A stretch of 64,000 bases of DNA from IMG/VR virus record IMGVR_UViG_3300003316_000080, positions 1 to 64,000 of that record; one strand, given 5' to 3'. The stretch is from a virus. Position numbers and translations under genes: made by a program. Shown in pieces: positions 906 through 62,683 of this stretch; within the stretch, counting starts at the first letter, position 1, and each line of letters opens with the position of its first letter. The notes under the pieces were generated by a model. It searched no databases and was not told where the DNA came from. It saw nothing but the letters and a program-made list of their open reading frames with translations.

Positions 906-941
906 GGAGAGATTGTATATAAACTTCTTACTGGTCCGCAA
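906..941 (-). promoter_or_regulatory. sigma70-like leftward promoter (TTGCGG-N18-TACAAT) with embedded CCAGTAAGAAGTTT motif
   Basis: -10 TACAAT = revcomp of 912-917, -35 = revcomp of 936-941; same TATATACAATCTC element recurs at 28783 and 62654. Confidence 0.35.
921..934. repeat. CAGTAAA-palindrome motif copy (CCAGTAAGAAGTTT, minus orientation)
   Basis: inside leftward promoter spacer. Confidence 0.5.
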
Positions 942-1132
942 GCACTTTTCGCGGTGTCTTCAGCACGTGGCGCGGTGTGTTGCGTAGCTGATGGCGGGGA
1001 CGCGTCTGTGCGCCACCGAACACAAGAGGCTCTGTACCCGTCTTGCTGGGTGTGTTCACAGCCAGCCCCTTCCCAGGAACCACGCTGTACTTGAACGGCC
1101 ACGGTGTGGCACGTAGCCACACGCCGTTCTTC

Positions 1133-1840
1133 TTAGCCACGACGCCCGCCCAGTTGACGCGCCACCATGACAGCAAGGCCAGAGCGCAGATAGCCGGGGA
1201 ATGCAGCATCGAACAGTGATGCCACATTAGCCTGACACGTCGACAACAGCTTTGCTCCCAGTGGCACTTCCATGCGACGGCTGATGCGCCGCGCATGTGC
1301 AACCACCAGTTCAGCCAACAGGTGATATACGGACACTCGTGTTGTGACTGGTTGCTCCAGCAACTTGCTTTGCTTCATGAAGTCGAGCACTGGAGTGAAG
1401 ACCGCACCAGAGGCCGCAGTACGCTTCATCGTGTGCACCGAGCCACCCGCCCCCACCGAGCCTCCGAGAGTGTCGTGTAGGGCCTTGTGTAGCGCCACAG
1501 CCCACATGTCCGAATCACGAGCCGGTGCAGCTTCGTTGACTTCGAGACTTAGCTGAGCAAGCAGCTGCTTTTTCTGGTCGAGGCTCAGACGATTTATGTT
1601 GGTCGAGTCTTCATCATCTTCAACAACCAAAACATGTCGAGCAGTTTTGTGTTGTGTTGATTTATGTAGACCCTGTCCGGGGTAATCACCACACCCACCC
1701 CCCTCCCCTAAAGGGAGGGGTGGGGTGGTGTGTGTTGTTCCCTGGCGCTTTTTTTGAGAAGTGCCAGACGACACTGAAGCACTCGCCACTGGTGGATAGT
1801 GGCGAACTGGCCTTGTCAGAGAAACCTTGCTACGCGCCAT
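1133..1840 (-). CDS. hypothetical protein; start uncertain
   Basis: ORF track; ATG at 1838-1840 with GAGG upstream, but ORF contains GC-rich palindrome 1687-1734; C-terminal two thirds protein-like. Confidence 0.35.
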   Translation of the reverse strand: MARSKVSLTRPVRHYPPVASASVSSGTSQKKRQGTTHTTPPLPLGEGGGCGDYPGQGLHKSTQHKTARHVLVVEDDEDSTNINRLSLDQKKQLLAQLSLEVNEAAPARDSDMWAVALHKALHDTLGGSVGAGGSVHTMKRTAASGAVFTPVLDFMKQSKLLEQPVTTRVSVYHLLAELVVAHARRISRRMEVPLGAKLLSTCQANVASLFDAAFPGYLRSGLAVMVARQLGGRRG

Positions 1841-1867
1841 AAGTGCCTCAGTATCGATTTGTGGGCG

Positions 1868-2371
1868 TCAGGTGGCCCGGGAGTGCACCTTGCCTTGTTT
1901 CGCGGGCTTGTGCGGCTTCTGTGCGGTTTTGCTCTTGCTGGCGGCAGAGACAGCCTTGCCGCGCGCAGCTTTCGCGTACAGACCTTCTTGCTTGTCTTGC
2001 TGCGGCGCAGACTGTTCACGCTTGGTCGGCGTCTTGATGGGCGGCTTGGGGTCACTGGACTCGCTGCCGTCGTCAGTTGCGCGCACAGCGCCCTTCTTGT
2101 TCTTCACCGGCTTCGTCTTCGCGACGGGCCCGGGTTGCTTGTTGGGCTCAGACGCGGCGGGCGGATTGAACTTCACGCCGTGATCCTTGGCCCACTTGGC
2201 AACTTCGCTCAGCTGGTACACCAGCTTGCCGTCGTCGCCGGTCGTGTAGGGCAGCGGCGCCTTGGTCGGCGTCCCGTTGCGCCAGTTATAGACGGTCATG
2301 TTTGCGACGCCGAACGCCTTCAGGATGTCCTTGTGCGTCAGCGTCTTCACGCCGTTCTTTTGCTTTGCCAT
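1868..2371 (-). CDS. HTH DNA-binding protein with Lys/Pro-rich basic tail
   Basis: ATG at 2369-2371 with AAGGAG 8 nt upstream; N-terminus MAKQKNGVKTLTHKDILKAFGVANMTVYNWRNG looks like a helix-turn-helix; tail KPVKNKKG...KPHKPAKQGK. Confidence 0.55.
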   Translation of the reverse strand: MAKQKNGVKTLTHKDILKAFGVANMTVYNWRNGTPTKAPLPYTTGDDGKLVYQLSEVAKWAKDHGVKFNPPAASEPNKQPGPVAKTKPVKNKKGAVRATDDGSESSDPKPPIKTPTKREQSAPQQDKQEGLYAKAARGKAVSAASKSKTAQKPHKPAKQGKVHSRAT

Positions 2372-2481
2372 GGGGTGCTCCTTCTTCATAGATGAAATGG
2401 CACGAGGATTATATATGAACTCGTTTGCGCTCTGTATATAGGCGCACGGCTACACTGCCGCCTTCCCACAGGAGAACTCAC
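2372..2481. promoter_or_regulatory. divergent intergenic region with AT-rich boxes (ATTATATATGAA, TGTATATAGG)
   Basis: 110-bp gap between leftward gene ending 2371 and rightward gene starting 2482; TATAAT readable on minus strand. Confidence 0.3.
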
Positions 2482-3132
2482 ATGAAGAACGCCAGATACG
2501 AGTTGGCCGGCCTGACGCTGCCTGTTCTGGGCATCGGCCGAGGCCAAGTGCTGCACGTAGGACCCAATGCCGGGTTCATGTGCATCAACCTTTTACTGGG
2601 ATCCTTGCCGAAAGCAGACGGGACCTTGAAGGAGATCACGACGGAAGCAGACCAGGTGTTGCACGAACTGATCGCCGCCTTCAACAAGTACCAGCACATC
2701 AACATCCTGCGTGTCCACTCGTCCGGCGATGCGATCGATCCGCTGCAGTGTGGCACCTTGTACGACCTGCATAAAGCGCTGCTCGCGTGGAGCCGTGAGC
2801 AGGGGCGTTCCTTCCAGATGCAGATCGAGACGAATGGGAAGCACGAGCACCCGAAGTTCCACGGCGCTGTGTCGATGATCCACGCACGGGCTGAGTCCCT
2901 GCTGTTCCTTGTCTTCGTGCACGGAAAGCCAGTGACTCAGATGCAGAACCTGTGCAAGCACTGGGTCTACACGTGTCAGGAACTGCTGGGCGAGCACTGG
3001 TCACATCTGTCACTGCCCTGGAAGACTTCGGCCTATGTCACGTACACACTCGATGACATCGTGTCGGACAAGGCCGCTCTCTTCACTGCCGCGAACAGGG
3101 AGGGCGTTCGTCTCCAGAAGGTGGTGGGCTGA
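2482..3132 (+). CDS. hypothetical protein
   Basis: ATG 2482 with AGGAG upstream; ORF track frame. Confidence 0.5.
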   Translation: MKNARYELAGLTLPVLGIGRGQVLHVGPNAGFMCINLLLGSLPKADGTLKEITTEADQVLHELIAAFNKYQHINILRVHSSGDAIDPLQCGTLYDLHKALLAWSREQGRSFQMQIETNGKHEHPKFHGAVSMIHARAESLLFLVFVHGKPVTQMQNLCKHWVYTCQELLGEHWSHLSLPWKTSAYVTYTLDDIVSDKAALFTAANREGVRLQKVVG

Positions 3133-4285: not shown

Positions 4286-5737
4286 GTGGAGATTCAAACC
4301 ACGCTAGACGCAAGTCTGGCTGAGAACCTGTTGACGCTTCTGTGCTTTGACGACGAGCACTGCAAGCTGATCCGGTATGGGCTGACGCCGCAGATGTTTG
4401 AATCGGCGGTGCTCAAGCAGATTGCCGGCGTCGCAATCGACTTCATCGATCAGTTTGGTGTCGCGGTCAAGGAGCACTTGCCCGACCACCTAGAAGACAT
4501 CCTGAACGGTGAAGACCAGCGCAAGGCGAAGTCGTATCGGATGGTGCTGGAAAAGCTGTATGACTCGAAGGACGCGGTGAATGCCGAGTTCGTCATGTCG
4601 CAGTTGCATGCATTCGTTCGCGCAGCCACGCTGAAGAGCGGACTGATGGACGCCGTTGCTCACATGGAGTCGGGCCGGATCGCGGAGTGCGAAACAGCCA
4701 TGACGACAGCCTTGAGCCGTCAGGTGATTTCGTTCGAAGTGGGCACGCGACTGGACAATGCAGACAGCTTGTCGGAAGCGCTGACCAATCTGGAAGAACC
4801 GGGCTTCAACCTCGACATTGACGCTTTCGATCGCGTTGGTGCGATTCCACGCCGCAAGCAGCTGTCTGTGTTCTTGGCAGCACGTGGCCGTGGTAAGTCA
4901 TGGTGGTCGATCTACATGGGCAAGCAGGCGCTGCTGCAGCGCTGGTCCGTGCTGATTGTCACGTTGGAGTTGTCTGAGGCGTACTACACGAAGCGCTTTC
5001 TGCAGTCGTTCTTCTCAATCTCGGACCGACAAGCCAAGGTGCTGGTGTCGGAGTTCAAGCGCGGACGTGATGGCTCGATCGTGGACGTCGTTCAGTCGGA
5101 ACTGCACCGACGCACACTGCGTGACGATGACTCCTTGGAGTACATCGCAGCGCGAGCACGGCGCGAGTTCAAGCAACGCCCCCCGCTGATCATCAAGAAC
5201 TTTCCTACAGCGACACTGACAGCTGAGACGCTGGAAGCGTATCTGGACGGTCTGCAGCGCCATCAGAACTTCACACCGGACCTGATCCTTGTCGACTATC
5301 CAGGCTTGATGAAGCTCGATCCCAAGAACAAGCGCATTGAGCTGGGATCGGCGGTGGAGCGTCTACGCGGCATTGCCGTAGCCCGCAACGCCCACATGGG
5401 GATCATGGCTCAGGGCAATCGTGAGTCGGAGACGGCACACACGGTCACGGCGGACATGACCGCCGAGGACATCTCGCTGTTGGCTACGGCTGACTTGTTC
5501 TTCACCTACAGCCAGACCAAGCTGGAGGAAAAGCTTAACCTCGCCCGCATCTTGTGTGAGAAGAACCGTAATGGTGTGGACGGCTTCGGGGCTCTGATCA
5601 CACAAAGCTATGAGATCGGCCAGTTCTGCCTGGACTCCAGTCCGCTAGAAACTTCTTACTGGGAACTGGACGTGCACGAGCAGGAAGACGAGGACCGGCC
5701 GCGCCGCAAGAAGCGTCGCAACGAGGACGAAGAATGA
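4286..5737 (+). CDS. dnaB: DnaB-like replicative DNA helicase
   Basis: GTG start; Walker A AARGRGKSW, Walker B LILVDYPG, C-terminal EKNRNG as in DnaB family. Confidence 0.75.
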   Translation: MEIQTTLDASLAENLLTLLCFDDEHCKLIRYGLTPQMFESAVLKQIAGVAIDFIDQFGVAVKEHLPDHLEDILNGEDQRKAKSYRMVLEKLYDSKDAVNAEFVMSQLHAFVRAATLKSGLMDAVAHMESGRIAECETAMTTALSRQVISFEVGTRLDNADSLSEALTNLEEPGFNLDIDAFDRVGAIPRRKQLSVFLAARGRGKSWWSIYMGKQALLQRWSVLIVTLELSEAYYTKRFLQSFFSISDRQAKVLVSEFKRGRDGSIVDVVQSELHRRTLRDDDSLEYIAARARREFKQRPPLIIKNFPTATLTAETLEAYLDGLQRHQNFTPDLILVDYPGLMKLDPKNKRIELGSAVERLRGIAVARNAHMGIMAQGNRESETAHTVTADMTAEDISLLATADLFFTYSQTKLEEKLNLARILCEKNRNGVDGFGALITQSYEIGQFCLDSSPLETSYWELDVHEQEDEDRPRRKKRRNEDEE

Positions 5738-7314
5738 TTCTGGTGTCGCGCCATGCCATCACACGCTACCTTGACCGAGAGCTAGAAACACACAAGTGGG
5801 TCAAGAAGCTGACAGAGCGTCAGCTGTGGCAGGAACTGAAGCAGCTGCGCACTGTCCCTCAGTTCAAGACTGACCCATGGCTGCACCAACTGGCGTGCTT
5901 CTATCTGGGCCTGCACTACCTGCGCTTCCTGTTCATCCTAGACATGGGGCTGGGCAAGTCGAAGTTGGTGATTGACCTGATCGAGCACCGTTTTCGGCAG
6001 AAGCGTCTCAGCATGCGCCGCGACGGACGCACAGCGCTGGTGATCGTTCCAGGCGTGCTGAATACGGTTGGATGGGGTGAGGACATCGAGCGCCATTCAC
6101 TCATGGAACCGCACCTGATCACGTGCGAGAACATTGAGCAGAAGCGCTATGAACTGCTGCACCCACAAGGTGAAGTGACCGTGATCGACATGCCGTCGCT
6201 TGCCCTAGCACTGTCCACCAAGAAGAAAGGCAAGGGTCGTGGCAAGTTGCTGGCAGACAAGCAGGCGATTGCACGCGCTCAGCAGTTGTACGGTTTCATT
6301 GGCGTTGATGAGACGCACAAGTACAAGAACCACGAAACCCTGTGGTACGACGTGCTCGATCCTCTGTGTGCAGCAGCCGACGAGGTGAAGGGGCTGACTG
6401 GAACCATCTTCAGTGCAAGTCCGATCGAGATGTGGCCGCAGTTTAATCTCGTCGACCGAGGTGAGACGTTCGAGAACCGTGGACTCTTCCAGGCGGCCTT
6501 CTTCGACTCGAAGTCAGATCATGTGAAGGGGACTGTGTACACCTTCAGGCCTGAGAGGACACGTACTCTCAACAGGATGATGCAGCACCGCTCGATTCAG
6601 TATGACGAATCGGAGGTGCACGAACTTCCAGAGCGCGTCTATCGTCCGATCAGGATGGAACTGGCAGGCGAAGCGGACGAGCATTACCGTCGCGCTCTGG
6701 AAGGTGTCATTAATGTTGGCGCCGCCGAGAGTAGCAAGCTAGATGGAGGCTGGGTGCGCATGCGCCAGATCTGCGGTGGCTACCTGAAGTGGTCTGATGC
6801 ACACGGAGCGCACAAGCTCATCTTTGCACAGAACCCGAAGTTGGACATGCTGATGCGCCTGCTGGAGGACATCGGAAGTAAGAAGGCTGTTGTGTGCCAT
6901 GACTACACCGACAGCGCGGAACTGATCGAAGCGCGGTTTAAGAAGGAGGGCATCAAGTACGCCACGTGCTCAGGGCGGACGAAGGACAAACCGGCAGAAC
7001 GCGCTCGCTTTCTCGATGATCCAACCTGCCGCGTCTTCTTGATGCAGAACGCGGCTGGGGGAACAGGCACTGACGGCCTGCAGAAGGTGTCCAACTACAT
7101 GATCTTCTTTGAGTCGCCAGCCTCCCCGGGTCTGCGCAAGCAAGTAGAAAAGCGCATACATCGTCCAGGTCAGACACAGAGGGCGTTCTACTACGATTTG
7201 ACATATGGGCGCACCGTCGATAGCGGCATCCGTGAAGCACACAAGCAGGGTTTTGACCTATACGAAGCCGTGATGTCTGGACGCTCTTCGACCTTGAGAG
7301 GGCTCATGAGTTGA
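5734..7314 (+). CDS. SNF2/SF2-family DNA helicase
   Basis: motif I LDMGLGKS, motif II VDETHK, motif VI HRPGQTQ. Confidence 0.75.
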   Translation: MILVSRHAITRYLDRELETHKWVKKLTERQLWQELKQLRTVPQFKTDPWLHQLACFYLGLHYLRFLFILDMGLGKSKLVIDLIEHRFRQKRLSMRRDGRTALVIVPGVLNTVGWGEDIERHSLMEPHLITCENIEQKRYELLHPQGEVTVIDMPSLALALSTKKKGKGRGKLLADKQAIARAQQLYGFIGVDETHKYKNHETLWYDVLDPLCAAADEVKGLTGTIFSASPIEMWPQFNLVDRGETFENRGLFQAAFFDSKSDHVKGTVYTFRPERTRTLNRMMQHRSIQYDESEVHELPERVYRPIRMELAGEADEHYRRALEGVINVGAAESSKLDGGWVRMRQICGGYLKWSDAHGAHKLIFAQNPKLDMLMRLLEDIGSKKAVVCHDYTDSAELIEARFKKEGIKYATCSGRTKDKPAERARFLDDPTCRVFLMQNAAGGTGTDGLQKVSNYMIFFESPASPGLRKQVEKRIHRPGQTQRAFYYDLTYGRTVDSGIREAHKQGFDLYEAVMSGRSSTLRGLMS

Positions 7315-7322
7315 TATACAAT
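7294..7322 (+). promoter_or_regulatory. sigma70-like promoter TTGAGA-N17-TACAAT
   Basis: -35 7294-7299, -10 7317-7322 within TATACAATCT element shared with leftward promoters; 32 nt upstream of primase start. Confidence 0.4.
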
Positions 7323-7353
7323 CTGCTGCAAGATAAACAAGAAGGCGGCAAAC

Positions 7354-8424
7354 ATGACTGGGCGGGTCTTTCGTTGGCGTGAACTATTTGACGAACATCA
7401 CGTTCGTTACATAGAGCGCGGCGCCAACGTGAAGCGCGGGGAGATCAACATCAAGTGTCCGTTCTGTGGCGCAGCTGATCCCAGCTACCACATGGGCGTC
7501 AACCTTGAATCAGGCTTTTGGGCCTGTTGGCGTAATGAGAACCACCGGGGCAAGTCGCCGCTGCGTCTCATCGTCACGCTGCTCAAGGTGTCGTACTACA
7601 GGGCCCGCGAGATCGCTGGCTTTGGTGACGACTACATCGATCCCGAGGGCTTCTCTGCTATGGCTGCACGCGTGCTGGGCCGCGACGGCCTGCTCGCTGG
7701 TGGCCGCACGGTTGACGAGGACCGGCAGCACCTGAAGTTCCCGCGTGACTTCGACACGCCACGCCGTCAGCGTGGATCGCGCGTGTGGAATTACCTCGCA
7801 CGTGAACGCGGTTTCGGTGTCTTCACAGATGAGTTGATCGACTACTACAGCATCAAGTGGACTCAAGGCGCTGAAGTCAACGAGAAAGATCCCGACGCGT
7901 GGAAGAAGAAATACGCCTGGACGGATCGCGCCATCATTCCGTATTACCTCGACCACAAGCTGATGACCTGGACAGGCCGCACGGTAAACGGTCATGCGAT
8001 CCGCTACAAGGATCTCTCAGTGGACGAGTCCATCAAGCCCCCCAAACAGACGCTGTTCAACTTTGATCGCACGATCAAGGGCGGTCGGGTGCTGCTGGCT
8101 GTCGAAGGTCCCATTGATGCACTGAAGGTCGATTTCTTCGGTGCAGAGGTCAAAGTGCGCGCTGTGGCGATGAGCACCAACAGCATGACGGATGAGCAGG
8201 TATATATGCTGGCCGACGCTGCCGAACGCTTTGACCGCCTGTTGTTCATGCTCGACAACAAAACGCAATTCGGCATCGTCGATTCGATGAAGATCAAAGC
8301 CAAGCTGAGCCACATCCCGAACGCGGGTGTGATCAGTGTTCCCTACGGCTTGGGGGATGCTGGGGCGCTCAGTCCCAAACAAGCAACGGAATGGACGGAC
8401 AAACTTTCTTCGGGGGAGCTATGA
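7354..8424 (+). CDS. dnaG: DNA primase (zinc-ribbon + TOPRIM)
   Basis: CPFCG...H zinc finger near N-terminus; TOPRIM-like LLAVEGPIDALK. Confidence 0.75.
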   Translation: MTGRVFRWRELFDEHHVRYIERGANVKRGEINIKCPFCGAADPSYHMGVNLESGFWACWRNENHRGKSPLRLIVTLLKVSYYRAREIAGFGDDYIDPEGFSAMAARVLGRDGLLAGGRTVDEDRQHLKFPRDFDTPRRQRGSRVWNYLARERGFGVFTDELIDYYSIKWTQGAEVNEKDPDAWKKKYAWTDRAIIPYYLDHKLMTWTGRTVNGHAIRYKDLSVDESIKPPKQTLFNFDRTIKGGRVLLAVEGPIDALKVDFFGAEVKVRAVAMSTNSMTDEQVYMLADAAERFDRLLFMLDNKTQFGIVDSMKIKAKLSHIPNAGVISVPYGLGDAGALSPKQATEWTDKLSSGEL

Positions 8425-8742: not shown

Positions 8743-9330
8743 ATGCGCAAGCAACTCGTTGCACACAAGGTGGCTCCGTTGCCGTTCGAGGGCAAGATAG
8801 CCGGCTACGTCGTGAACAACCTGGAGATGTGGAAGTACGAACCGCTCTTCACGTACAACGACATGATCCAAGAAGCCACGCTGGTGTGGCTGAAGTGCGG
8901 ACAGGAATACCCGCACGTCGTCAGTAAACACTTTATGGCCCTGTTCAAGACGGCGTGGTATCGGCGCTGTGTCGATCTCGCCTATGAAGCATCGGAGTGC
9001 CGCGCACAGATCGCGATCACTTTCGGCGATACATACGGTTCGGATGACGAAACCATTGCGCTGGCTAAAGAACCGATGGGCGATGAAGAGAACGCGGGCT
9101 ACATGCGCACCCTGATCCGTCAGATCACGGAGCAGGCACCGGAAGAAGTCGTCAGCGTGTTCACGCTGATGCTCAATGCGCCGGTTGAACTGCTTGAACT
9201 GGCGTCGAACGCACTGGGACGTCGCAACAAGAACAACTCCAACATGATGGTTGCTCGTTGTCTGGGCCTGCCCGATGACAGCAAGCCTGTAGACGCAGCA
9301 AAAAGTTATGTACGCAGCGCACTGAAATAA
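8743..9330 (+). CDS. hypothetical protein; weak resemblance to ECF-type sigma factor
   Basis: ATG 8743 with GGAGGTG SD; DMIQEATLVWLKC (region-2-like) and MMVARCLGL (region-4-like); similarity weak. Confidence 0.45.
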   Translation: MRKQLVAHKVAPLPFEGKIAGYVVNNLEMWKYEPLFTYNDMIQEATLVWLKCGQEYPHVVSKHFMALFKTAWYRRCVDLAYEASECRAQIAITFGDTYGSDDETIALAKEPMGDEENAGYMRTLIRQITEQAPEEVVSVFTLMLNAPVELLELASNALGRRNKNNSNMMVARCLGLPDDSKPVDAAKSYVRSALK

Positions 9331-11640: not shown

Positions 11641-14274
11641 ATGTCGTTTTTCTTCGCAGAGACAAAGCGCGCCAAGAAGACAGGCGCTCCGTCGAAGAAG
11701 GCCGTGATCCCCATCGCAAGCCTGCAGCGTGCCGGCTGCACTGTATGTCCGCGCAAGGCAGACTGGGACGACGGCATCAAGACGCCACAGATGAAACCGG
11801 CCGGCCATCAGTCGCCGACGGTGTATCTGCTAGGCACGGCCCCGTCTGAGAAGGAAGACCGACTGGACGAGCCCTTTGTGTCCACAGCCTATGAAGAGGT
11901 GCTGTCGAAGTTGCCGGCGTCTCTGAGGCGGTATAGCCGCGTCGGCTATCTGACGCAGTGCAAGGCCGCCAGTAAAAACTTGATGCTGGAGATGTCGCCG
12001 GACCACGCGGAGATCGAGTGCTGCCGTCCTCGCGTGATCGCAGACATCGAAGAGACGAAGCCGATTGTCGTGATCGGCATCGGCGACAAAGCGCTTAATT
12101 GGGCCCTCCCCTTCTCATCGGGCGTCACCTCGATCACGCATCGAGGCACCTTGTTTCCGGTGAAGTTCGGGACGCACACGTGCTGGTTTTACAGCGTCAT
12201 GTTCCCGGCATATGTGCACCGAGAAAAGCGCAAGTATCCGACTGAGTACGAGATCGCGCTGACGCACGACCTACGCAATCTCGCTAAGTTGATCAACAAC
12301 GAAGAGATTGGTGTTCCGAAGATCTACGCAGACAAGTGGGAAGAGGGTATCGAGATCGTGACAGGTCACGATGCCGGAGACTTCCAGCGTGTGGAGCGCG
12401 CACTTGCAGACATGGCAGCGCTGCCCGATGTCGCACTCGACATCGAAACCAATGGCCTGCGGCCCTGGCACTTGAACAAGCCCAGGTTGTGGACTGCCGC
12501 AGTAGGCACATTCGAGCGTGTGATCGCCTTCCCGATTGATCATCCTGACGGCTGGGGCGCTGACGCGCGCATCCGCAAGATGCACGGTCTGTTCGCTGAG
12601 TGGCTGTGGCAATCGCGCCGGAAGTGGGCACATAACCTTGCAATGGAACTGGAGTGGTTTAACTGGTTCTACAGTCCGCACGCGATCATGGGCAATGAGT
12701 GGGGCGACACGATGGCCCTTGCCCATGTACTCGACGAGCGCAAGGGCACGAAGTCATTGGAGGTGCAGACGATCATTGGCGCCGGCTTCAACCTGAAGTC
12801 CATGAGTCCAGTTGATCCGTCGTTGCCTGACTGGATCAGTAAGTACCCGATTAAGACGGTGCTGAAGTACAACGGTGGAGACTCGAAATGGACGGACTTC
12901 CGTCGCCGCCAGCTGCAGCCGATCGTGGAGGCCGACGAAAAGCTCCATGACGTCTATCAGCACAAGATTCGAATGGCGCCGGCTTTGATCCTCACAGAGG
13001 CCAAGGGCCTACCGGTGTCTGTGCCGCGTGCTGAGAAGATGAATCGCGCACTGACGGAGCAACTGCACAAGATTGAAGACAAGCTGCGGGCTGATGTGGC
13101 TGTGCGCCGCCATACAACGCAGTTCGGCCAGTTCAGCCCGACGAACTCCGATCATGTGCTCGCGCTGATGGAAAAGACCCTCAAGCGCGATGAGATCTAC
13201 ATCATTGAGAAAGACGGGTCTGAGTCGAAGTCAGTCGCTGAAGAAGTGCTGGCGCTGATGCCTGAAGATGAGGTGCCATCAGCGAAGTTGATCCTGGAGC
13301 ACCGGGGCATCTCCAAGCTGAAGTCGACGTATCTGGAGCCAGTGATCAAGGGCACGATGATCAGCGTCGATGGCTATGTGCACTCGAAGTACAGCAGTCT
13401 GTTCGCCGCGACCCACCGCCTGAACTCTGAAGATCCCAACGCGCAGAACTGGCCTAAGCGCAAGCACAAGGAAGTTCGCTCGATCTTCTACGCGGAAGAT
13501 GATGAAGAGATTCTGGCGTGCGACTACGGCCAGATCGAGTTCCGCGTCGTGGGCATGTGCTCGGAGGACGACAACCTGTGCCGGGCCGTGTGGACCGGGT
13601 ACGACGTGCACTTGCACTGGGCAGAGCGGATCGTCGCCCTGTATCCCAAGATCAAGGACTGGATCAGATCAGAGTTCGAGGTGGACTGGGATGAGAAGGG
13701 CATCAAGACGCTGCGCCAGGAGGCCAAGAACAAGTGGGTGTTTCCGCAGTTCTTCGGTGCCTCGATCAAGTCGTGTGCAGCCTCTCTGCACTTGCCTGAA
13801 GAGGTCGCGCAGGATCTGGCTGATGAACTATGGGATGAGTTCCGAGGCGTCAAGCGCTGGCAAGACAAGTTGATGGAGTCGTTTGCGCGCAAGCTCTACG
13901 TGGAGACGCTGGACGGTGCGCGCCGTCGTGGGCCCATGACCAAAAACGAGATCATCAACATGCCGATCCAGGGCACAGCGGCCCGCATCGTGCAGACCGC
14001 GCATGCAGCTTTGGCTGAACGCGGCTTCATCATGGATCGCGGCGTGTATATCCCATCGCTGAACGTACATGATGACCTCTCAACCTGGAGCAAGAAGGCA
14101 GAGCGGGAGGCCAACGTGAAGATCATCGTCGAAGAGATGTGCAAGCACCGATTTGACTGGATCAACGTGCCGCTGCTGGTGGAAGTGTCGGCCGGGCCTG
14201 ACTGGTCCGACCTGACCGAGATCGGCAAGTACAGCAGCCATGAGCTGTTCAACATCAGGAACCCTTACCAATGA
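11641..14274 (+). CDS. polA: family-A DNA polymerase with N-terminal UDG-like (family 4) domain and 3'-5' exonuclease domain
   Basis: Exo I LDIETNGL; motif A DYGQIEFRV; motif C VHDDL; N-terminus YLLGTAPSEKEDRLDEPFV with Cys cluster resembles Fe-S UDG. Confidence 0.85.
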   Translation: MSFFFAETKRAKKTGAPSKKAVIPIASLQRAGCTVCPRKADWDDGIKTPQMKPAGHQSPTVYLLGTAPSEKEDRLDEPFVSTAYEEVLSKLPASLRRYSRVGYLTQCKAASKNLMLEMSPDHAEIECCRPRVIADIEETKPIVVIGIGDKALNWALPFSSGVTSITHRGTLFPVKFGTHTCWFYSVMFPAYVHREKRKYPTEYEIALTHDLRNLAKLINNEEIGVPKIYADKWEEGIEIVTGHDAGDFQRVERALADMAALPDVALDIETNGLRPWHLNKPRLWTAAVGTFERVIAFPIDHPDGWGADARIRKMHGLFAEWLWQSRRKWAHNLAMELEWFNWFYSPHAIMGNEWGDTMALAHVLDERKGTKSLEVQTIIGAGFNLKSMSPVDPSLPDWISKYPIKTVLKYNGGDSKWTDFRRRQLQPIVEADEKLHDVYQHKIRMAPALILTEAKGLPVSVPRAEKMNRALTEQLHKIEDKLRADVAVRRHTTQFGQFSPTNSDHVLALMEKTLKRDEIYIIEKDGSESKSVAEEVLALMPEDEVPSAKLILEHRGISKLKSTYLEPVIKGTMISVDGYVHSKYSSLFAATHRLNSEDPNAQNWPKRKHKEVRSIFYAEDDEEILACDYGQIEFRVVGMCSEDDNLCRAVWTGYDVHLHWAERIVALYPKIKDWIRSEFEVDWDEKGIKTLRQEAKNKWVFPQFFGASIKSCAASLHLPEEVAQDLADELWDEFRGVKRWQDKLMESFARKLYVETLDGARRRGPMTKNEIINMPIQGTAARIVQTAHAALAERGFIMDRGVYIPSLNVHDDLSTWSKKAEREANVKIIVEEMCKHRFDWINVPLLVEVSAGPDWSDLTEIGKYSSHELFNIRNPYQ

Positions 14275-40824: not shown

Positions 40825-40835
40825 AAGCTCCCTAC

Positions 40836-42336: not shown

Positions 42337-42354
42337 GCAGTAAACAGTTACTGC
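42337..42354. repeat. CAGTAAA-palindrome motif copy (GCAGTAAACAGTTACTGC, perfect 7+7 inverted repeat)
   Basis: 2 nt after stop of scaffold gene. Confidence 0.55.
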
Positions 42355-48963: not shown

Positions 48964-48989
48964 GAACTTTCATCTGAAGGAGAGCCACC

Positions 48990-50140: not shown

Positions 50141-51586
50141 ATGGCAGCTGGTTCCTCTGAAGTCCTGCGCGAGTATCTGATTCGTCTGGGCTTCCAGATC
50201 GACCAGCGCGGCCAACGCAACTTCGACACGGCAACGGTCAACATCCAGAAACGCGTGATGGGAATCGCGCAGGCTGTGACCGCCGTGACGGGTGCTGCAA
50301 CCGCAATGGTTGTCTCGTACACCCGCGACATGGAGAAGATGTATTACGCCTCCCGTAAAGCGGAGGCGCCTGTCGCAGCGCTGAACAACCTCGCATACGG
50401 ATACCGTCAGATCGGACTGGATGGTAAACAGGCGATTGCCACAGTCGAAGGCATTGCACGCAGCATGCGCAGCAACCCGGGCTTGACGGCATTGCTGAAG
50501 GACCTGGGAGTGCCCGTGCAGGGCCGCACCAAAGATCAGGTACTGCTGGACCTCGTCGGTGCCTTGCGCAAGATGCCTGAGCACATCGCCATCCAGTACG
50601 GCAACCTGTTTGGGATCGACCCTGATCAGCTGAAACTTCTTACTGAAGGCTATGACAAGTTGCTGGCTGCTGAGAAGCAGCGCCAGATGATGACGCAGGG
50701 TCTGAACATCGATACAGAGGCAGCGGCAAAGGCTGCTGTCGAATATGCGAATGCACTCGACAAGGTGACGGAGCGCGCCAAGATCCTGTTTAGCGTCATT
50801 TCCGTTGGCATGCTGCCTTACTTCAAGCAGATGACGTCCAATCTGGACGAGATGCTGAAGAGCATGACACGCGTCGCTGCTTTTGCTCAAAAGGCCACGC
50901 CTGCTGAATTCTGGGCAGAGACGAAGAATCAGGCCCGGCTGCTGTGGGAGACGCTGTCGGGCAGTCGCGGCAGTGTGACGCTGAGCCCGCGAGCCCAGGC
51001 GCAGAAGGACACAGCAGGCTTGTCGGGCCTCCCCGCCCTCCCACCAGGGCCGCCAGCGCCAGCTGGCAATTTGCCCCTAGGCCTGCGGAACAACAATCCT
51101 GGCAACTTGCGCGCCGGCTTGGGTCAGACGGGCATGAACCGGGGGTTCGCAACTTTCGACACGCCGGAGCAGGGCCTTGCTGCAATGGCGCGGCAGCTAC
51201 TGCTGTACCAGAACCGCGACGGCCTCAAGAACATCTCGCAGATCATCAAGAAGTACGCACCGGCCAGCGAGAACAACACACAGGCATACATCGACGCAGT
51301 AACGAAGGCGACAGGCTTCAACTCTCAGGAGTACATTGACCTCAACGCGACAGGCAATCTGGCCGCGATCATGGAGGCCATGGTCAAGCACGAGAATGGG
51401 CGCAATCCGTTCTCGTCTGCCCAGTTTGAGACAGCGGCACGTCAGGGTGCCGCCTTCCAGCAGCAGACCAATATCACCGTCTATGGCGCCACAGACCCCA
51501 CAGCAACGGCAAATGCCATCGGCGGTCAGCAGCGCTCTGTCAACTCCGATCTGATGCGTCAGATGGGCACACGCAAGGTGGAATAA
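50141..51586 (+). CDS. tail tape measure protein (short) with C-terminal conserved LRNNNPGNLR region
   Basis: position after chaperone; helical N-terminus. Confidence 0.5.
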   Translation: MAAGSSEVLREYLIRLGFQIDQRGQRNFDTATVNIQKRVMGIAQAVTAVTGAATAMVVSYTRDMEKMYYASRKAEAPVAALNNLAYGYRQIGLDGKQAIATVEGIARSMRSNPGLTALLKDLGVPVQGRTKDQVLLDLVGALRKMPEHIAIQYGNLFGIDPDQLKLLTEGYDKLLAAEKQRQMMTQGLNIDTEAAAKAAVEYANALDKVTERAKILFSVISVGMLPYFKQMTSNLDEMLKSMTRVAAFAQKATPAEFWAETKNQARLLWETLSGSRGSVTLSPRAQAQKDTAGLSGLPALPPGPPAPAGNLPLGLRNNNPGNLRAGLGQTGMNRGFATFDTPEQGLAAMARQLLLYQNRDGLKNISQIIKKYAPASENNTQAYIDAVTKATGFNSQEYIDLNATGNLAAIMEAMVKHENGRNPFSSAQFETAARQGAAFQQQTNITVYGATDPTATANAIGGQQRSVNSDLMRQMGTRKVE

Positions 51587-55771: not shown

Positions 55772-56413
55772 ATGTTCAATTACACGAGTCTGATCACGAG
55801 CGAGCACCAGAAGCCGAAATTTACGGCGTGGGTGGAGGCGCTGACACAGCCATTCAACGACATCAACACCACGCAGGAAAAGATTCAGGCCGGCTTTGAC
55901 GTTGACGTGGCTGTGGGCGAACAACTGGACATGGTCGGCCTCTGGGTGGGCCTCAGCCGCGTTCAACAGGTGCCAATCGACGGCGTCTTCTTCACCTGGG
56001 ACGATGCAGACCTGGGCTGGAACTTTGCTGTGTGGAAAGGCCCATTTGAGCCGACTCAAGGTGTTGTGTCGCTCGATGATGAGTCCTACCGCGCCGCAAT
56101 TCTGGGCAAGATCGCCAGTAACTATTTTCTGGGCACCATCCAATCTGCAAACGAAATCGCGATGAACAGCTTCACGCTTTTTGGCGTGAATTACTTTTTC
56201 ATCGATCACCAAGACATGAGCATTGACATCTACATCGCTGGTGGTGCATCGGCGGTGTTGATTGAAATGATCAGGCGTGGTGACATCATCCCTAAGACGG
56301 CTGGTGTGCGCATCAATAGCATCACAGTTGCTCCGGGCCCGTTCTTTGCCCTCGATGCGCCCACAACACCTTTCAGCGCTGGCCTCGACGTTGGCGTCTT
56401 CAGCACCACCTAA
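55772..56413 (+). CDS. baseplate/tail protein I-like
   Basis: position after J-like gene. Confidence 0.45.
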   Translation: MFNYTSLITSEHQKPKFTAWVEALTQPFNDINTTQEKIQAGFDVDVAVGEQLDMVGLWVGLSRVQQVPIDGVFFTWDDADLGWNFAVWKGPFEPTQGVVSLDDESYRAAILGKIASNYFLGTIQSANEIAMNSFTLFGVNYFFIDHQDMSIDIYIAGGASAVLIEMIRRGDIIPKTAGVRINSITVAPGPFFALDAPTTPFSAGLDVGVFSTT

Positions 56414-57142: not shown

Positions 57143-59227
57143 ATGGCGACCAATGAATTTCTGCCCTTTGCCACAGACGCTGGCGCCGAGGTTGATACTC
57201 AGGCTGTGTGGGCTTCTCCTAGTGGTTACCGCCCGGTAGGTTATGGACCTGGGATTCTGACGAAAGAAAAGCTGAACAAGGCTCTTCGTCAGAGCACCTC
57301 TATCGCCTCTGCCGTCGCTCAATTGATGGCAGAGAACCTGCCCAGTGAAGACATCCTGGATAACGGTGACATCAACACGTTGGTGGACCAACTCTCGCGG
57401 GCTGTGATCACCGGTACATTCCTGAGTGGCACTGCCAGCACGCAGGGCTCGAACGCCGTTGGCACGCGTCAGAACTTGGCAGGGGCTGTCGATCGCACAC
57501 AACATGAAAAGAACGCCGACTTCATCAGCGTGAAGGATTTCGGTGCTGTTGGTGACGGTGTGCACGATGACACGACGGCTTGCGTGGCCGCAGCCACGGC
57601 CGCTCTTGCAGTTGGAGCGGGTCTGTATTTTCCAGACGGCCGCTATTACATCAACGGACTTTTCAGTGTCCCGAACAAAGTATCTTTGTATGGGTCTGGT
57701 AAGACTACCAGCGAGATCCAGTTCGGTTCCTCTGGAAGCCTTCGTGTGGTCGGCACATCACCCAGCTACGTGGGGCGTTTGTCTATCAGTCGACTAGGCT
57801 TGACCAATCAGGGCGCGGGTTCCCCCTTCGGCATTCAGTTCACGTATGCGACTCGCATCACGATGTACGACTGTGTCGTCTATAACACCAGCATTCAACT
57901 GTCTGCGTTCTCGTACATCACCTTTGAAAACTGTGACCTGTTTGGTGGCAGCATTCAAGGCGACCACCCCACAGTCAACGAGATCAGTGAAGCACTGAAG
58001 ATCATCGGCTGCAACGGCAGCAACTTTGCGATTAACGTGAAGGACACTGCCGACGTTCTCGTGTCACGTACACATCTGCTTGGGCCCACCTCACAGATCA
58101 TGATCCAGCGTGGCGAGCAAAACAGCGCGTTTTACCCACCTGTACAGATTGCCAATTGCATTGTGGATTCTGGTGATGATGAAGGCATTTATCTGATTGG
58201 CGTTGCGCCAAGAATTTCGGATACCTTCGTCAGCAGTGGTCGCACCAACCTGAAGTCAGGTGTGCGCTTGAATGATTGCATTGAAGGCAGCTTGATCGGT
58301 GTTACGGCGCGCTTTTGCGGCAATCATGGTCTGCATGTTGGCTTCAGCAAGCAGATCAAGGTTTTGGGGGGCCATTTTGACGACAACAAGGTGTCGGGTG
58401 TGCGTATCGGTGATTCGTCAGATCTGACTTTCATCGGCAATACGATGATGAACCAGCCATCGTGGTTCGGTGGTAGCTACCCACAGGTAAACGGCATCAC
58501 GGATGAGCCCTCGAACTGCACGAACATCACATGCATCGGAAATCAGACGGTGGGCAACACGAGTGCTCAGGTGTACCTGCCGTCTGCTACCAACATCATC
58601 CACAGCAACGTCGGATACAACGAAGGTCGCCTGACCTGTGATAGCTGGCGCAACAACACGGACAATGCGGCGTCTCTTGGGACTGCCGGCGCTAGATACA
58701 CCGTGGTGCATGCGGTCAGTGGCACCATCAACACGTCAGATGCCAATGAAAAGCAGGATATCGAAGATATTCCTGTGGAGTGGTTAGAGGCATGGTCCTC
58801 CGTAAGGCGTGTGCGCTTCAAATGGAAGGACGCTGTGCAGAAGAAAGGCACCGGTGCCCGTTGGCACATCGGTCTGATTGCACAAGAGATCTGGGAGGCT
58901 TTCGCCGCTCGCGGTATCGACGCGTTCGAGATTGGTCTTCTGTGTTATGACGCGTTCGAAGAAGTACCAGAGCGCACGGTGGAAGTGCCTGAAATCCCGG
59001 CACTCGTCATCGAGCACCCAGAAGTTCCTGAAGTGCTGGATGAAGACGGCCGTGTCATACAAGAATACAAGCCAGGATGGCACGAAGTGGTCGAAGAAGC
59101 GCAGCCAAGCCGTGTAGTAGTCGTCCAGGAGTACAAGCCTGCTGGTGGTCGCTATGGTGTGCGTTACGAAGAGGCTGAGGCACTAGAGGCCGCTTGGGTT
59201 CGCTGGAAATTGGAATCTCTTCAGTAA
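57143..59227 (+). CDS. tailspike, right-handed beta-helix (pectate-lyase-like) with C-terminal intramolecular chaperone domain
   Basis: ISVKDFGAVGDGVHDDTTAC; C-terminal SDANEKQDIEDIP (S74-like); N-terminal ~50 aa similar to preceding fibre. Confidence 0.65.
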   Translation: MATNEFLPFATDAGAEVDTQAVWASPSGYRPVGYGPGILTKEKLNKALRQSTSIASAVAQLMAENLPSEDILDNGDINTLVDQLSRAVITGTFLSGTASTQGSNAVGTRQNLAGAVDRTQHEKNADFISVKDFGAVGDGVHDDTTACVAAATAALAVGAGLYFPDGRYYINGLFSVPNKVSLYGSGKTTSEIQFGSSGSLRVVGTSPSYVGRLSISRLGLTNQGAGSPFGIQFTYATRITMYDCVVYNTSIQLSAFSYITFENCDLFGGSIQGDHPTVNEISEALKIIGCNGSNFAINVKDTADVLVSRTHLLGPTSQIMIQRGEQNSAFYPPVQIANCIVDSGDDEGIYLIGVAPRISDTFVSSGRTNLKSGVRLNDCIEGSLIGVTARFCGNHGLHVGFSKQIKVLGGHFDDNKVSGVRIGDSSDLTFIGNTMMNQPSWFGGSYPQVNGITDEPSNCTNITCIGNQTVGNTSAQVYLPSATNIIHSNVGYNEGRLTCDSWRNNTDNAASLGTAGARYTVVHAVSGTINTSDANEKQDIEDIPVEWLEAWSSVRRVRFKWKDAVQKKGTGARWHIGLIAQEIWEAFAARGIDAFEIGLLCYDAFEEVPERTVEVPEIPALVIEHPEVPEVLDEDGRVIQEYKPGWHEVVEEAQPSRVVVVQEYKPAGGRYGVRYEEAEALEAAWVRWKLESLQ

Positions 59228-59238
59228 ACTTCTTACTG
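59222..59238. repeat. CAGTAAA-palindrome motif copy (CAGTAAACTTCTTACTG)
   Basis: contains stop codon of tailspike gene; followed by hairpin 59239-59257. Confidence 0.5.
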
Positions 59239-60420: not shown

Positions 60421-60932
60421 TCTCAGCGCTTCTTTGGCTTGGCGGCCGTGCACTGAAGGTGTTGGGAAGCATCCCTGTGTGGGCGTACGCTGCGGCGGCA
60501 CTCTTTGCCTGGGGTGCTTACGGCCACCACAAGGCTACGAGCGCCAAGCTGGAGGCCGTTCAGCAGGAAGCGCGGGCCGAAGCCAAGTTGCGTGAGCAGC
60601 AGGAGAGCAACAGAAATGACGAGTGGACACGGAACGAATCGAATCGACTCATCGCTGCCAGTCTGGCAAAAGCAAGGGAGCATAGTCGGGCTGTTGAGCG
60701 TGATGCTGCTGGCCGGATGCGGGCACTTGCCGCAGCCTGGGCAGCAAGTGCAGCCAGTGCGGGTGCCGCCTCCTGCGCCGCAGCTGATGGAACCCCCGCC
60801 GTCGCAGTCCTTCGTGACGACGTTAGAGAAGTGCTTGTCAGCAACGCGGCCGTCGCGGACGGATTGCGAGATCAAGTGAAGGGTCTGCAGGACTACGTCA
60901 CCAACGTATGCCGGCCCGCCAGCGCTCCTTAG
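60417..60932 (+). CDS. i-spanin (Rz-like)
   Basis: N-terminal TM IPVWAYAAAALFAWGAY followed by coiled coil; hosts embedded o-spanin. Confidence 0.6.
   Translation: MISALLWLGGRALKVLGSIPVWAYAAAALFAWGAYGHHKATSAKLEAVQQEARAEAKLREQQESNRNDEWTRNESNRLIAASLAKAREHSRAVERDAAGRMRALAAAWAASAASAGAASCAAADGTPAVAVLRDDVREVLVSNAAVADGLRDQVKGLQDYVTNVCRPASAP
60616..60879 (+). CDS. o-spanin (Rz1-like lipoprotein) embedded in +1 frame of i-spanin
   Basis: ATG 60616 with AGGAGAG SD; lipobox LLAGC; Pro-rich mature part. Confidence 0.6.
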   Translation: MTSGHGTNRIDSSLPVWQKQGSIVGLLSVMLLAGCGHLPQPGQQVQPVRVPPPAPQLMEPPPSQSFVTTLEKCLSATRPSRTDCEIK

Positions 60933-61543
60933 TACCAGCCCTCCAGGCCGAGTCGAGTTCGCTGCTCACTCGGTAGACGCGCCTGCCCATCGGTGTAGTC
61001 GCGCAGCAGCTCCCGGGCCCGCGACAGATCGACCAGATCCTTTTCCGTGCTCAGGATCTCAGTCTGCTTGCCTTCAATCTTCTGTTGTATCAGGCCGCCG
61101 ATCACGTTCTCGCCTGTCTCCTTGAGAAACCGCACAGACGACGCCTTGCGTGTCAGAAACGCGAGATCTTGTTGCAGATGCCTGATGGCTCGCTGGACCT
61201 GCGTGATGCGGTCAGCGATCACGATGTCCGTTGACTCGATCACGTCCATCAGGCCGGGCGCGTTCATGTTGGCCGTCAGCACAGCACTGACAGCGTTCAG
61301 CATCACCTCGCGAGCATCAGTGTCCTTGTCGACCTGCTCGATGCGCTTTTCTTCATCCCATAGTCGGCGCTTCTCCGCGTCGAGCAGGATGCGCGCTGCC
61401 TCGTTGATCTGAACCATCACGGCCGGGTCGCCGCCGCGATCCGGGTGATTGTCCCAAGCGAACTTGCGCCGGGCCTTCTTGATGTCGTCCAGGCTGCAAT
61501 TCTTGTCGAGTTGCAGGATGCGATAAGGGTCGAAGTTGTCCAT
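60929..61543 (-). CDS. J-domain (DnaJ-like) protein
   Basis: DPYRILQLDKNCSLDDIKKARRKFAWDNHPDRGGD with HPD motif. Confidence 0.75.
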   Translation of the reverse strand: MDNFDPYRILQLDKNCSLDDIKKARRKFAWDNHPDRGGDPAVMVQINEAARILLDAEKRRLWDEEKRIEQVDKDTDAREVMLNAVSAVLTANMNAPGLMDVIESTDIVIADRITQVQRAIRHLQQDLAFLTRKASSVRFLKETGENVIGGLIQQKIEGKQTEILSTEKDLVDLSRARELLRDYTDGQARLPSEQRTRLGLEGWY

Positions 61544-61545
61544 GT

Positions 61546-61962
61546 TCAGCTTCCGTAGTTCTTGATCAGATAGTCACGCAGCGCTTCATAGCCGGCCATC
61601 CACTGGCCGTCCGCGCATGCATCCCGATTGCTCTTCAGGAATTCTTGTGCCGTGGGGATGTGTGCTGGGATCGTCATGGTGCGCGGCATGTTCTGGGAAT
61701 AGCCCGTGCCGGACACAGACCCTAGGCCAACTACGGCCTTGCGCATAGGCACGCCCTTGGAGTCTTTGCTGGAGGACCCGTCTTCGATCATCCAGTGTCC
61801 CGTTGCTTTGGGCACGTTGTCGCGGGCCCATTTCCAGCCGTTAAGCCAGGATTGGCGTTGCCCGTCAAAGAAACGATCAAATCTTGACGGTGGTGCCTCA
61901 TGAATGCCCTTGCCAGCCCGATAGGCGTCCACGCCCTGCTGCCACAAACTGATGCTGTTCAT
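61546..61962 (-). CDS. protein with N-terminal ribosome-modulation-factor (RMF)-like domain
   Basis: GVDAYRAGKG ... QRQSWLNGWKWA aligns with E. coli RMF GYQAGIAG ... QRSQWLGGWREA. Confidence 0.45.
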   Translation of the reverse strand: MNSISLWQQGVDAYRAGKGIHEAPPSRFDRFFDGQRQSWLNGWKWARDNVPKATGHWMIEDGSSSKDSKGVPMRKAVVGLGSVSGTGYSQNMPRTMTIPAHIPTAQEFLKSNRDACADGQWMAGYEALRDYLIKNYGS

Positions 61963-62159
61963 GTCTCTTCCCTCAGTTGCCGCCGCTCACGCAGTTGATG
62001 CCGGCGCTTGCGTGCTTGTTGTGATTCCGCCCACAGCCAGCCGTTGGTCCACGACCAGCTAGGTCGTCCGTCTTGCTCCCGTGGGGCATCACCACGCCCT
62101 TCCCCACGCCGGAAGGCATCACAGCCCTCCTGCCAACGAGAGACGAAACGATTCACCAT
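61959..62159 (-). CDS. small RMF-like protein (paralog)
   Basis: GCDAFRRGEG ... RPSWSWTNGWLWA; tandem with previous gene. Confidence 0.4.
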   Translation of the reverse strand: MVNRFVSRWQEGCDAFRRGEGRGDAPREQDGRPSWSWTNGWLWAESQQARKRRHQLRERRQLREET

Positions 62160-62623
62160 GACTTCGGCGGCGGGATAGGGGTGTCGTCGTCCAAGGGCAC
62201 AAAGAACCTGACCGCCGCTGGATTCGTTGCTTTGTGGAAAGCTGCTGACATTTCTTTCTGAAGTTGATGCTCGAAGTTCTTGACCTCGTCATTCGCTTCC
62301 CGCGCCACGCTCTCAGGATCGAGCAGCATGCGAAGTTGTTGGTAGTGGCTGGAGTGGCGGATCACAGACGAGTCGTACATCAGGTCACGGGCACGGTTCA
62401 GGCGCGCTTGCAGTTCCACGTTGGCGTGGCGCAGCTTGCCTGATTCATGTGCTTCCGCCAGCCGCAGAGAGCGGCACTCAGCGTGGTGCGTGCGCTCCGT
62501 GTCCAGATCCGCCTGCACGATCGCGACTTGATCCTTCGCACACATCCAGCCTATGAACAGACCCACGATTGCCCCGAAAAGCATGAGGGTCACCATCGCT
62601 CCACCGATCATCCAGTCCGACAT
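62153..62623 (-). CDS. membrane protein with N-terminal TM and coiled coil
   Basis: ATG 62621-62623 about 30 nt downstream of promoter -10; MSDWMIGGAMVTLMLFGAIVGLFIGWM. Confidence 0.45.
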   Translation of the reverse strand: MSDWMIGGAMVTLMLFGAIVGLFIGWMCAKDQVAIVQADLDTERTHHAECRSLRLAEAHESGKLRHANVELQARLNRARDLMYDSSVIRHSSHYQQLRMLLDPESVAREANDEVKNFEHQLQKEMSAAFHKATNPAAVRFFVPLDDDTPIPPPKSW

Positions 62624-62647
62624 GTTGTTGCTCCAATGAGAAAGGGT

Positions 62648-62683
62648 GCAGAGATTATATACAAACCTCTGCACCCTCTACAA
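62648..62683 (-). promoter_or_regulatory. leftward sigma70-like promoter (TTGTAG-N18-TATAAT) with -10 inside 10-bp inverted repeat
   Basis: -10 = revcomp of 62654-62659; inverted repeat GGGTGCAGAG 62644-62653 / CTCTGCACCC 62667-62676; CAGTAAA motif 62684-62698 adjacent. Confidence 0.35.

Follow-up and report, generated by a model that had tools for sequence, protein, structure and literature searches.

Five short, related elements are dispersed through a 64,000-nucleotide (nt) stretch of viral DNA (IMG/VR virus record IMGVR_UViG_3300003316_000080, positions 1 to 64,000; the whole of this stretch is termed 'the window' below), and it is probable that they serve as promoters at which the housekeeping (sigma-70-type) RNA polymerase of the bacterial host would transcribe the early genes of a virulent phage. 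Four of the five (copies A, B and C on the minus strand and copy D on the plus strand) had been described in an original prediction as a shared promoter element, and each was found at the position given there. That set was nevertheless incomplete, because a relaxed search of the window recovered a fifth copy that had been overlooked (copy E, AGTTCATATATAATC, 2407-2421 on the minus strand). The interpretation of the elements as promoters fits their -10 and -35 anatomy, their orientation toward genes, the presence of a C-A step at the usual distance, and the conservation of the -10 hexamer in some 20 relatives of the phage.

Anatomy and distribution of the five copies

The core of the element, a 12-mer (TATATACAATCT), is present without change in copies A (910-921, minus strand) and B (28781-28792, minus strand), with one mismatch in copy D (GATATACAATCT, 7313-7324, plus strand), and with two mismatches in copy C (TGTATATAATCT, 62652-62663, minus strand). 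Five strand matches to this 12-mer were counted where 0.44 were expected, and none of 100 shuffled sequences contained five or more. A consensus, RAGTTNRTATAYAATCY, fits all five copies. A weight matrix constructed from those copies scores its own sites at 28.9-36.2 bits, the reverse strands of the same five sites (the second-best matches) at no more than 17.5 bits, and the best unrelated sequence at 12.2 bits; given this gap between the sites themselves and everything else, the window contains exactly five copies. The simpler layout TTG-N21-TAYAATC is likewise overrepresented, with three occurrences against 0.09 expected.

The bare hexamer TAYAAT, in contrast, is neither enriched nor depleted (8 observed against 9.06 expected in dinucleotide shuffles), and a depletion of -10-like hexamers from the genome was considered and rejected on that count. 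What is not random is the extended context of the hexamer and its placement: seven of the eight occurrences fall within the 6.7% of the window that lies outside called genes (binomial P ~4e-8). The ordinary number of hexamers is what might be expected if the sites were AT-rich relics between genes, without function and promoter-like only by chance; however, an extended motif far above chance, its non-random placement, and the invariance of the -10 hexamer at orthologous positions in distant relatives (described below) all speak against such an origin, which is considered highly improbable.

The individual sites (Table 1) display the parts that are expected of a promoter of this type. In every copy, the second base of the -10 hexamer is A and the sixth is T (TACAAT in A, B and D; TATAAT in C and E), and the spacers of copies A to D (18, 18, 18 and 17 base pairs (bp), respectively) all lie within 17 +/- 1 bp. 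The -35 hexamer of copy D, TTGAGA, placed 17 bp upstream as had been proposed, agrees with TTGACA at five of six positions. The -35-like box that had been reported as common to A and B (GTGCTTGCG) is indeed shared, and in fact extends to an identical 12-mer, AAAGTGCTTGCG, of which the window contains no further good copies. A and B are thus identical over the -35 box and again over GAAGTTTATATACAATCTC, and differ at about nine spacer bases in between; agreement at both boxes with divergence between them would be the signature of selection at two regions of contact and not of a recent duplication. A further sequence common to the upstream regions of B and C (TTGTAGAGGG) was found to be within chance.

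The relationship of the elements to the genes that they face is equally regular. All five copies are oriented toward the adjacent gene, and the distance from the end of the -10 hexamer to the start codon is 31 nt in A (ATG 880), 30 nt in B (ATG 28752), 30 nt in C (ATG 62623) and 31 nt in D (ATG 7354); in E it is 36 nt (ATG 2371), with a GGAG preceding the start codon. A C-A step, at the usual position of a transcription start, is found 7 nt (copies A, B and C) or 8 nt (copy D) past the -10 hexamer.

Conservation in related phages

The window has no match at the DNA level among 50,697 phage records (megablast, 8 kb), and its nearest isolated relative, Edwardsiella phage vB_EpM_ZHS (hereafter ZHS), shares about 50% amino-acid identity with it (54% for the portal protein and 52% for the polymerase). 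An exact scan of IMG/VR with 16-mers gave 30 single matches, which were rejected as chance because none carried the second motif (described below), and a search for relatives with a single-protein locus gave no match. Relatives were recovered only with an alignment as the query: that of the helicase-like protein encoded upstream of copy D with its ZHS orthologue retrieved 3 metagenomic and 21 IMG/VR loci with 32-49% identity; several lie on contigs of 64-74 kb. The relatives used for the comparison of -10 hexamers share 43-49% protein identity.

At the position of copy D, most relatives carry TATAAT directly past the stop codon of the orthologous gene, and in an alignment of 11 such regions (mean column identity 48%) the only invariant columns are T-A-.-A-A-T and one A upstream. 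The ZHS version of this site, TTTATATAATCTCTGCATCC, is nearly the same as copy C of the present phage. At the position of copy E, nine phages all have TATAAT in the divergent region that precedes the gene for the orthologous DNA-binding protein (39% identity). In ZHS and about 20 metagenomic relatives, TA.AAT is thus unchanged at both positions, and its flanks have diverged. That the -10 hexamer alone is conserved, at fixed positions, among phages that share about half of their protein residues constitutes strong evidence of function.

The early regions of the relatives also contain a repeated layout, TTGCRC-N18-TAGAATC, which is homologous to GTGCTTGCG-N18-TACAATC in the window, and in these GC-rich relatives almost all TAYAAT hexamers have a ribosome-binding site and an ATG downstream. 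The divergent region of the relatives contains two back-to-back TATAAT elements about 31 bp apart, of which the second serves the rightward replication genes (loci L034-L056); in the window the corresponding rightward element reads TATATA (2425-2450), having lost the T at position 6, and this decay leaves the replication block without an obvious consensus promoter. No published description of promoters in ZHS or its relatives was found in the literature searched.

A scheme for early transcription, and its competitors

If the elements are recognized by the host enzyme, as we infer from sequence and comparison, region 2 of the sigma factor would contact TAYAAT and region 4 the TTG(C/T/A)NN hexamer 17-18 bp upstream. 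Transcription would begin at the conserved C-A step, 7-8 nt past the -10 hexamer, to give a leader some 24 nt long, or about 30 nt in copy E, which would run up to the start codon and contains, in most copies, a GGAG-type ribosome-binding site. Copy E would initiate the leftward early block, with the DNA-binding protein as its first product; A and C would restart transcription within the leftward early block; B would head another leftward block, made up of small orphan genes; and D would act as an internal booster ahead of a primase-like gene.

Several observations weigh against this scheme. The -35 hexamers of A, B and C agree with TTGACA at only three of six positions (the TTG being present), copy E lacks a convincing -35 hexamer at 17-18 bp, and a spacer of 18 bp exceeds the optimum by one. 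The conservation is also greater than sigma-70 requires (AGTT at -21 to -18, and C-T at -6 and -5), which may point to another reader of the site. The approximately 50 products scanned include no RNA polymerase or sigma factor, which speaks for the host enzyme, but they are a part of those encoded in the window, and a phage transcription factor is therefore possible. Finally, the U-tract that follows the hairpin at copy C (described below) is interrupted (UUUCUCAUU).

One way to account for such features would be to treat the elements as middle or delayed-early promoters, dependent upon a phage factor that redirects the host polymerase in the manner of MotA and AsiA of phage T4. The strict conservation of GTGCTTGCG in A and B around a weak -35 hexamer (three of six positions), its resemblance to the TTGCRC of the relatives, and the absence of any -35 in E would all suit that arrangement. 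However, the scanned products include no homologue of an activator or appropriator, the conserved box sits at the normal -35 distance (18 bp), copy D matches the -35 consensus at five of six positions with a 17-bp spacer, and the same architecture is retained in relatives of 53-62% GC; dependence on a phage factor is accordingly judged to be decidedly unlikely. The MotA box of T4 lies 11-13 bp from the -10 hexamer, a distance too short to fit here, and this was not used as evidence.

A second competitor, which is compatible with promoter function, holds that the conserved block of 16-17 nt is chiefly an operator, at which a dimeric DNA-binding protein of the phage (for example, the product of 1868-2371) would bind AGnTTnTATAnAAnCT over the -10 hexamer and shut off early transcription. 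The reverse complement of the motif does rank directly below the motif itself at these sites (at most 17.5 bits, with two mismatches to the pattern), conservation extends outside of the -10 hexamer, a perfect palindrome (CTTTATAAAG) lies in the spacer of the relatives' early promoters, and the E operon opens with the gene for a conserved DNA-binding protein. Yet most of the symmetry derives from an alternating TATATA core that is palindromic by nature, the outer positions match at only 5-6 of 8 half-site positions, the orthologous alignments leave TA.AAT invariant and not its flanks, and the long arms at copy C are unique to that copy. A principal role as an operator thus appears unlikely, and the sites are better regarded as sigma-70-type promoters.

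A hairpin that overlaps promoter C

The original prediction also placed the -10 hexamer of copy C in the loop of a 10-bp inverted repeat and offered that repeat as a possible operator. The inverted repeat is real, and longer than had been thought: its 14-nt arms (62643-62656 and 62664-62677) are complementary at all but one position (93%), with 7 nt between them. The arm sequence, GGGTGCAGAG, does not occur beyond chance elsewhere in the window (6 near matches against 7.2 expected), and since the sites of a shared operator would recur, the operator reading of the arms was rejected as the less likely one.

The repeat has instead the appearance of a terminator. The minus-strand RNA is predicted to fold with an energy of -29.5 kcal/mol (z = -5.25; no shuffled sequence is as stable), its tail (UUUCUCAUU) contains six U in nine positions, and the hairpin begins 22 nt past the stop codon of the upstream gene (62699-63148). 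A simple terminator scan missed it, part of the loop being paired through a single G-U only. No stable hairpin is present at A, B, D or E, where folding is no better than that of shuffled sequences (z of -1.4 to +2.0). The structure at C is thus probably an intrinsic terminator, or else an attenuator, that serves the leftward genes upstream (62699-63148 and beyond) and shares its DNA with the promoter that follows; built around the -10 hexamer, it would stop transcription arriving from upstream and leave the following cassette to its own promoter.

A conserved leader hairpin of a different type (ACGCCGctgatttccaCCGGCGT) is found past one early promoter of several relatives (4120-4175 in L034, 2230-2286 in L037 and 3640-3687 in L056, all on the minus strand), and nothing comparable to it exists in the window.

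A second motif and a candidate late switch

A second motif (CAGTAARAAGTTT) accompanies three of the promoters and is more puzzling than the promoters themselves. A 13-mer form, CAGTAARAAGWTT, occurs at 11 sites against 0.14 expected, and the motif is better described as a dyad, CAGTAA-N4-TTWCTG, with 10 distinct sites (at most one mismatch) against 0.28 expected. Copies at 18477, 42338 and 59222 are perfect palindromes. About nine of 14 sites are intergenic, mostly at gene junctions; at several, the TAA of the motif is the stop codon of the upstream gene, and at four a GC-rich hairpin follows 8-15 nt further on. The motif is absent from ZHS. Its left half is invariant, its right half is consistently TTTCTG, which is not the exact complement, and most sites point in the direction of local transcription; for these reasons an oriented signal that acts at the level of RNA is as likely as a site for a dimeric protein, and the motif is a candidate both for the operator of a phage regulator and for an RNA processing or translation signal. 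LexA boxes presumably have their half-sites in the opposite order or at another spacing, and the RNase E consensus, which we take to be RN|WUU, matches AG|UUU in the dyad; neither comparison was counted as evidence.

Two further -10 hexamers lie near copies of this motif (candidates B' and F, Table 1). About 110 nt past B' is a strong plus-strand terminator (28956-28980; 11 bp, 8 of them G-C pairs, followed by TCTTTT), and only beyond it is the first gene of the 32-kb rightward structural operon encountered (ATG 29009). This layout (28843-29011), which recalls that of PR'-tR' in phage lambda, suggests a late switch that would operate by antitermination; the leader between B' and the terminator contains no significant extra structure. 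Candidate F, a possible separate promoter for the head genes, has a weak -35 hexamer (TTGTTT, at a spacer of 19 bp), lacks the shared upstream flank, and has a copy of the dyad in its leader (region 40793-40836).

Taken together, the dyad might be the site of an uncharacterized phage regulator, or an RNA signal, that would shut off the early promoters and mark the boundaries between cistrons in the late operon, to which B' and its terminator would add a late switch of the antitermination type. This proposal is tentative and rather unlikely; were it true, the promoters and the CAGTAA dyad would form two halves of a phage-specific control circuit.

Genome context

The window (59% G+C) appears to derive from a novel, probably virulent, myovirus-like tailed phage. 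A search of 185,579 bacterial genomes found no relative, and hence provided neither a clue to the host nor a prophage, which suggests a virulent lifestyle; Rfam and transfer RNA scans of the window were empty. Encoded functions include a family A DNA polymerase with a uracil-DNA glycosylase (UDG)-like domain, a clamp and clamp loader, a single-stranded DNA-binding (SSB)-like protein, RecA-like functions, two DNA methylases, a large terminase with an intein, a portal protein, a DUF3383 sheath protein, baseplate proteins, a tail spike of the pectate lyase type, a lysozyme and an Rz-like protein.

The genes fall into alternating leftward and rightward blocks (Table 1). Copy E stands at the head of the first leftward block and B at that of the block at 27-28.7 kb, A and C are internal to leftward blocks, and D lies two bases past the stop codon of a SNF2-like helicase gene, ahead of the primase-like gene. 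Most leftward genes are small and lack detectable homologues in ZHS, although three of their products belong to recognizable families (a DNA-binding protein, a protein with a DnaJ domain and a MazG-like pyrophosphohydrolase). Those that follow A, B and C are likewise small, without a ZHS homologue that could be detected, and gave no informative family matches. Such a content is typical of early host-takeover regions, and the early timing proposed for the promoters would be in keeping with it.

Table 1. Positions of the promoter copies, associated elements and gene blocks in the window
Feature	Position	Strand	Composition	Context	Sequence of site
Promoter A	905-948	-	-35 TTGCGG 936-941; 18-bp spacer; -10 TACAAT 912-917; predicted start A905; upstream box AAAGTGCTTGCG 937-948	downstream open reading frame (ORF) 485-880 (ATG 878-880)	GAAAAGTGCTTGCGGACCAGTAAGAAGTTTATATACAATCTCTCCATC (minus strand)
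Promoter B	28776-28819	-	-35 TTGCGT 28807-28812; 18-bp spacer; -10 TACAAT 28783-28788; predicted start A28776; box AAAGTGCTTGCG 28808-28819	heads leftward block 27021-28752 (ATG 28750-28752)	GAAAGTGCTTGCGTTCTGGCTTGAAGTTTATATACAATCTCCACATC (minus strand)
Promoter C	62647-62683	-	-35 TTGTAG 62678-62683; 18-bp spacer; -10 TATAAT 62654-62659; predicted start A62647	ORF 62153-62623	TTCTTGTAGAGGGTGCAGAGGTTTGTATATAATCTCTGCACCC (minus strand)
Promoter D	7294-7330	+	-35 TTGAGA 7294-7299; 17-bp spacer; -10 TACAAT 7317-7322; predicted start ~A7330	-35 inside 3' end of SNF2-like helicase gene 5734-7314; downstream primase-like gene 7354-8424	CTTGAGAGGGCTCATGAGTTGATATACAATCTGCTGC (plus strand)
Promoter E	2398-2438	-	-10 TATAAT 2408-2413 within AGTTCATATATAATCC; no convincing -35	divergent control region 2372-2481; downstream DNA-binding-protein gene 1868-2371	
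Hairpin at C	62643-62677	-	14-bp stem, 7-nt loop; followed by TTTCTCATT on the minus strand	overlaps promoter C	
Dyad copy at A	921-933	-		inside spacer of promoter A	CAGTAAGAAGTTT
Dyad copy at B	28822-28837	-		33 nt upstream of the -10 of B; also in spacer of candidate B'	CAGTAAAAAGTTTCTA
Dyad copy at C	62682-62697	-		abuts and overlaps the -35 of C	CAGTAAAAAGTTTCTT
Other dyad sites (about 14 with the three above)	5646-5661(-), 8922-8937(+), 18477-18492, 30658-30673(+), 36049-36064(+), 40808-40820(+), 42338-42353, 48958-48970(+), 50630-50645(-), 56116-56131(+), 59222-59238				
Candidate B'	28843-28848	+	-10 TACAAT	rightward, divergent from B	
Candidate F	40793-40798	+	-10 TATAATC	37 nt upstream of the ATG of the DUF2213 head gene; past terminator 40622-40644	
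Gene block	1-2371	leftward	small early-type genes		
Gene block	2482-26852	rightward	replication		
Gene block	27021-28752	leftward	small genes		
Gene block	29009-60932	rightward	packaging, structural and lysis genes		
Gene block	60929-64000	leftward	small early-type genes		

By comparison with ZHS (L031, L033), the whole of the structural and packaging module (29009-60932) is inverted with respect to the early and replication modules, and the leftward block headed by B lies at the new junction.

That rearrangement is among the reasons to ask whether the repeated promoters serve mainly as patches of homology for the shuffling of orphan-gene cassettes, as has been proposed for the promoter early stem-loop (PeSL) elements of T4-like phages, which are associated with recombination or the formation of mini-circles; such a role would be additional to promoter function. 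It would also suit the identical blocks of 12 and 19 nt in A and B, the lack of detectable ZHS homologues for the genes past A, B and C, and the combination at copy C of a stem-loop with a promoter, as in PeSLs (PMC2839356). There are only five copies, however, of which one has a stable stem-loop, the identical stretches do not exceed 19 nt, and no close relative was found in which an exchange at these sites might be seen; a main function in recombination is consequently viewed as improbable.

Several other features of the window deserve record. The intein of the large terminase is represented by Intein_splicing, Hint_2 and PT-HINT domains at residues ~455-588 of ORF 31246-33111(+) (window 31264-33111). 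The uracil-DNA-glycosylase-like domain of the family A polymerase, 11641-14274(+), is N-terminal, and an exact look-up of this 877-residue protein identified only one other public contig (5.7 kb, Logan SRR1926121). A methylase ORF of 830 residues, 24360-26852(+), has an N6_N4 methylase domain that is split, with profile positions 1-89 near its N-terminus and 148-220 near its C-terminus, and a helix-turn-helix (HTH) domain between the two pieces; within it, in another frame, lies an HNH_3 endonuclease ORF (25223-25711, E = 3e-9), with TATAAT (25184), a small hairpin and GGAGG ahead of it. The split ORF, especially its region 25184-25711, may represent the insertion of a homing endonuclease or a frameshift in the assembly. 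Lastly, a tandem repeat of AGCCGGAGCCGT (window 1-105; period 6/12 nt, ~8.8 copies) is located inside a leftward ORF at the left edge.

Significance and comparison with known systems

The promoters are of a well-known kind, and in themselves are no surprise to a phage biologist. Their value is that of a usable transcription map for an otherwise unstudied lineage (genomes of ~65-73 kb, one isolate and ~20 metagenomic relatives), in which five probable early starts divide the genome into early, replication and structural units and two control positions, D and E, are conserved across the lineage. Being compact (~45 bp) and probably strong, the promoters are also possible expression parts for the host of the phage.

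The early promoters of virulent phages that depend upon sigma-70 include those of T4 and the T5 and T7 A-type host-polymerase promoters. The elements described here resemble them in their near-consensus -10 hexamer, a TTG-containing -35 hexamer at 17-18 bp, A/T-rich DNA upstream of the -35, the presence of several near-identical copies before small early genes, and the conservation of more than the two hexamers. In A to C, the A-tracts that precede the -35 are somewhat like what we take to be the UP-element consensus, a likeness that was not counted as evidence. The elements differ from those early promoters in that the -35 hexamer reads TTGCGN or TTGTAG rather than TTGACA, three copies have an 18-bp spacer, the genome is 59% GC, the predicted leader is fixed at about 24 nt, and the promoters are predicted here from sequence and comparison.

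In the PeSLs of T4-like phages, the -35 of a sigma-70-like promoter is preceded by AT-rich DNA, in which the upstream stop codon is often found; their stem-loop terminator can overlap the -10 hexamer, a ribosome-binding site and ATG lie at the 3' end, and they adjoin orphan genes (Arbiol et al. 2010, PMC2839356; Comeau et al. 2014, PMC4122927). Copy C has the same layout, whereas the five copies as a set do not: a stable stem-loop is present in one of the five, at C only, there are five copies rather than about 50, and the phage is not T4-like.

The closest parallel is provided by the early promoters of ZHS and its metagenomic relatives, which occupy orthologous positions (past the helicase-like gene, and in the divergent region between early and replication genes) and share both the TTTATATAATCTCTGCA-type sequence and the TTGCRC-N18-TAnAATC layout. 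The relatives mostly use TATAAT or TAGAAT together with the CTTTATAAAG palindrome in the spacer, whereas the present phage has TACAAT in three of its copies and, in place of that palindrome, the CAGTAA dyad nearby.

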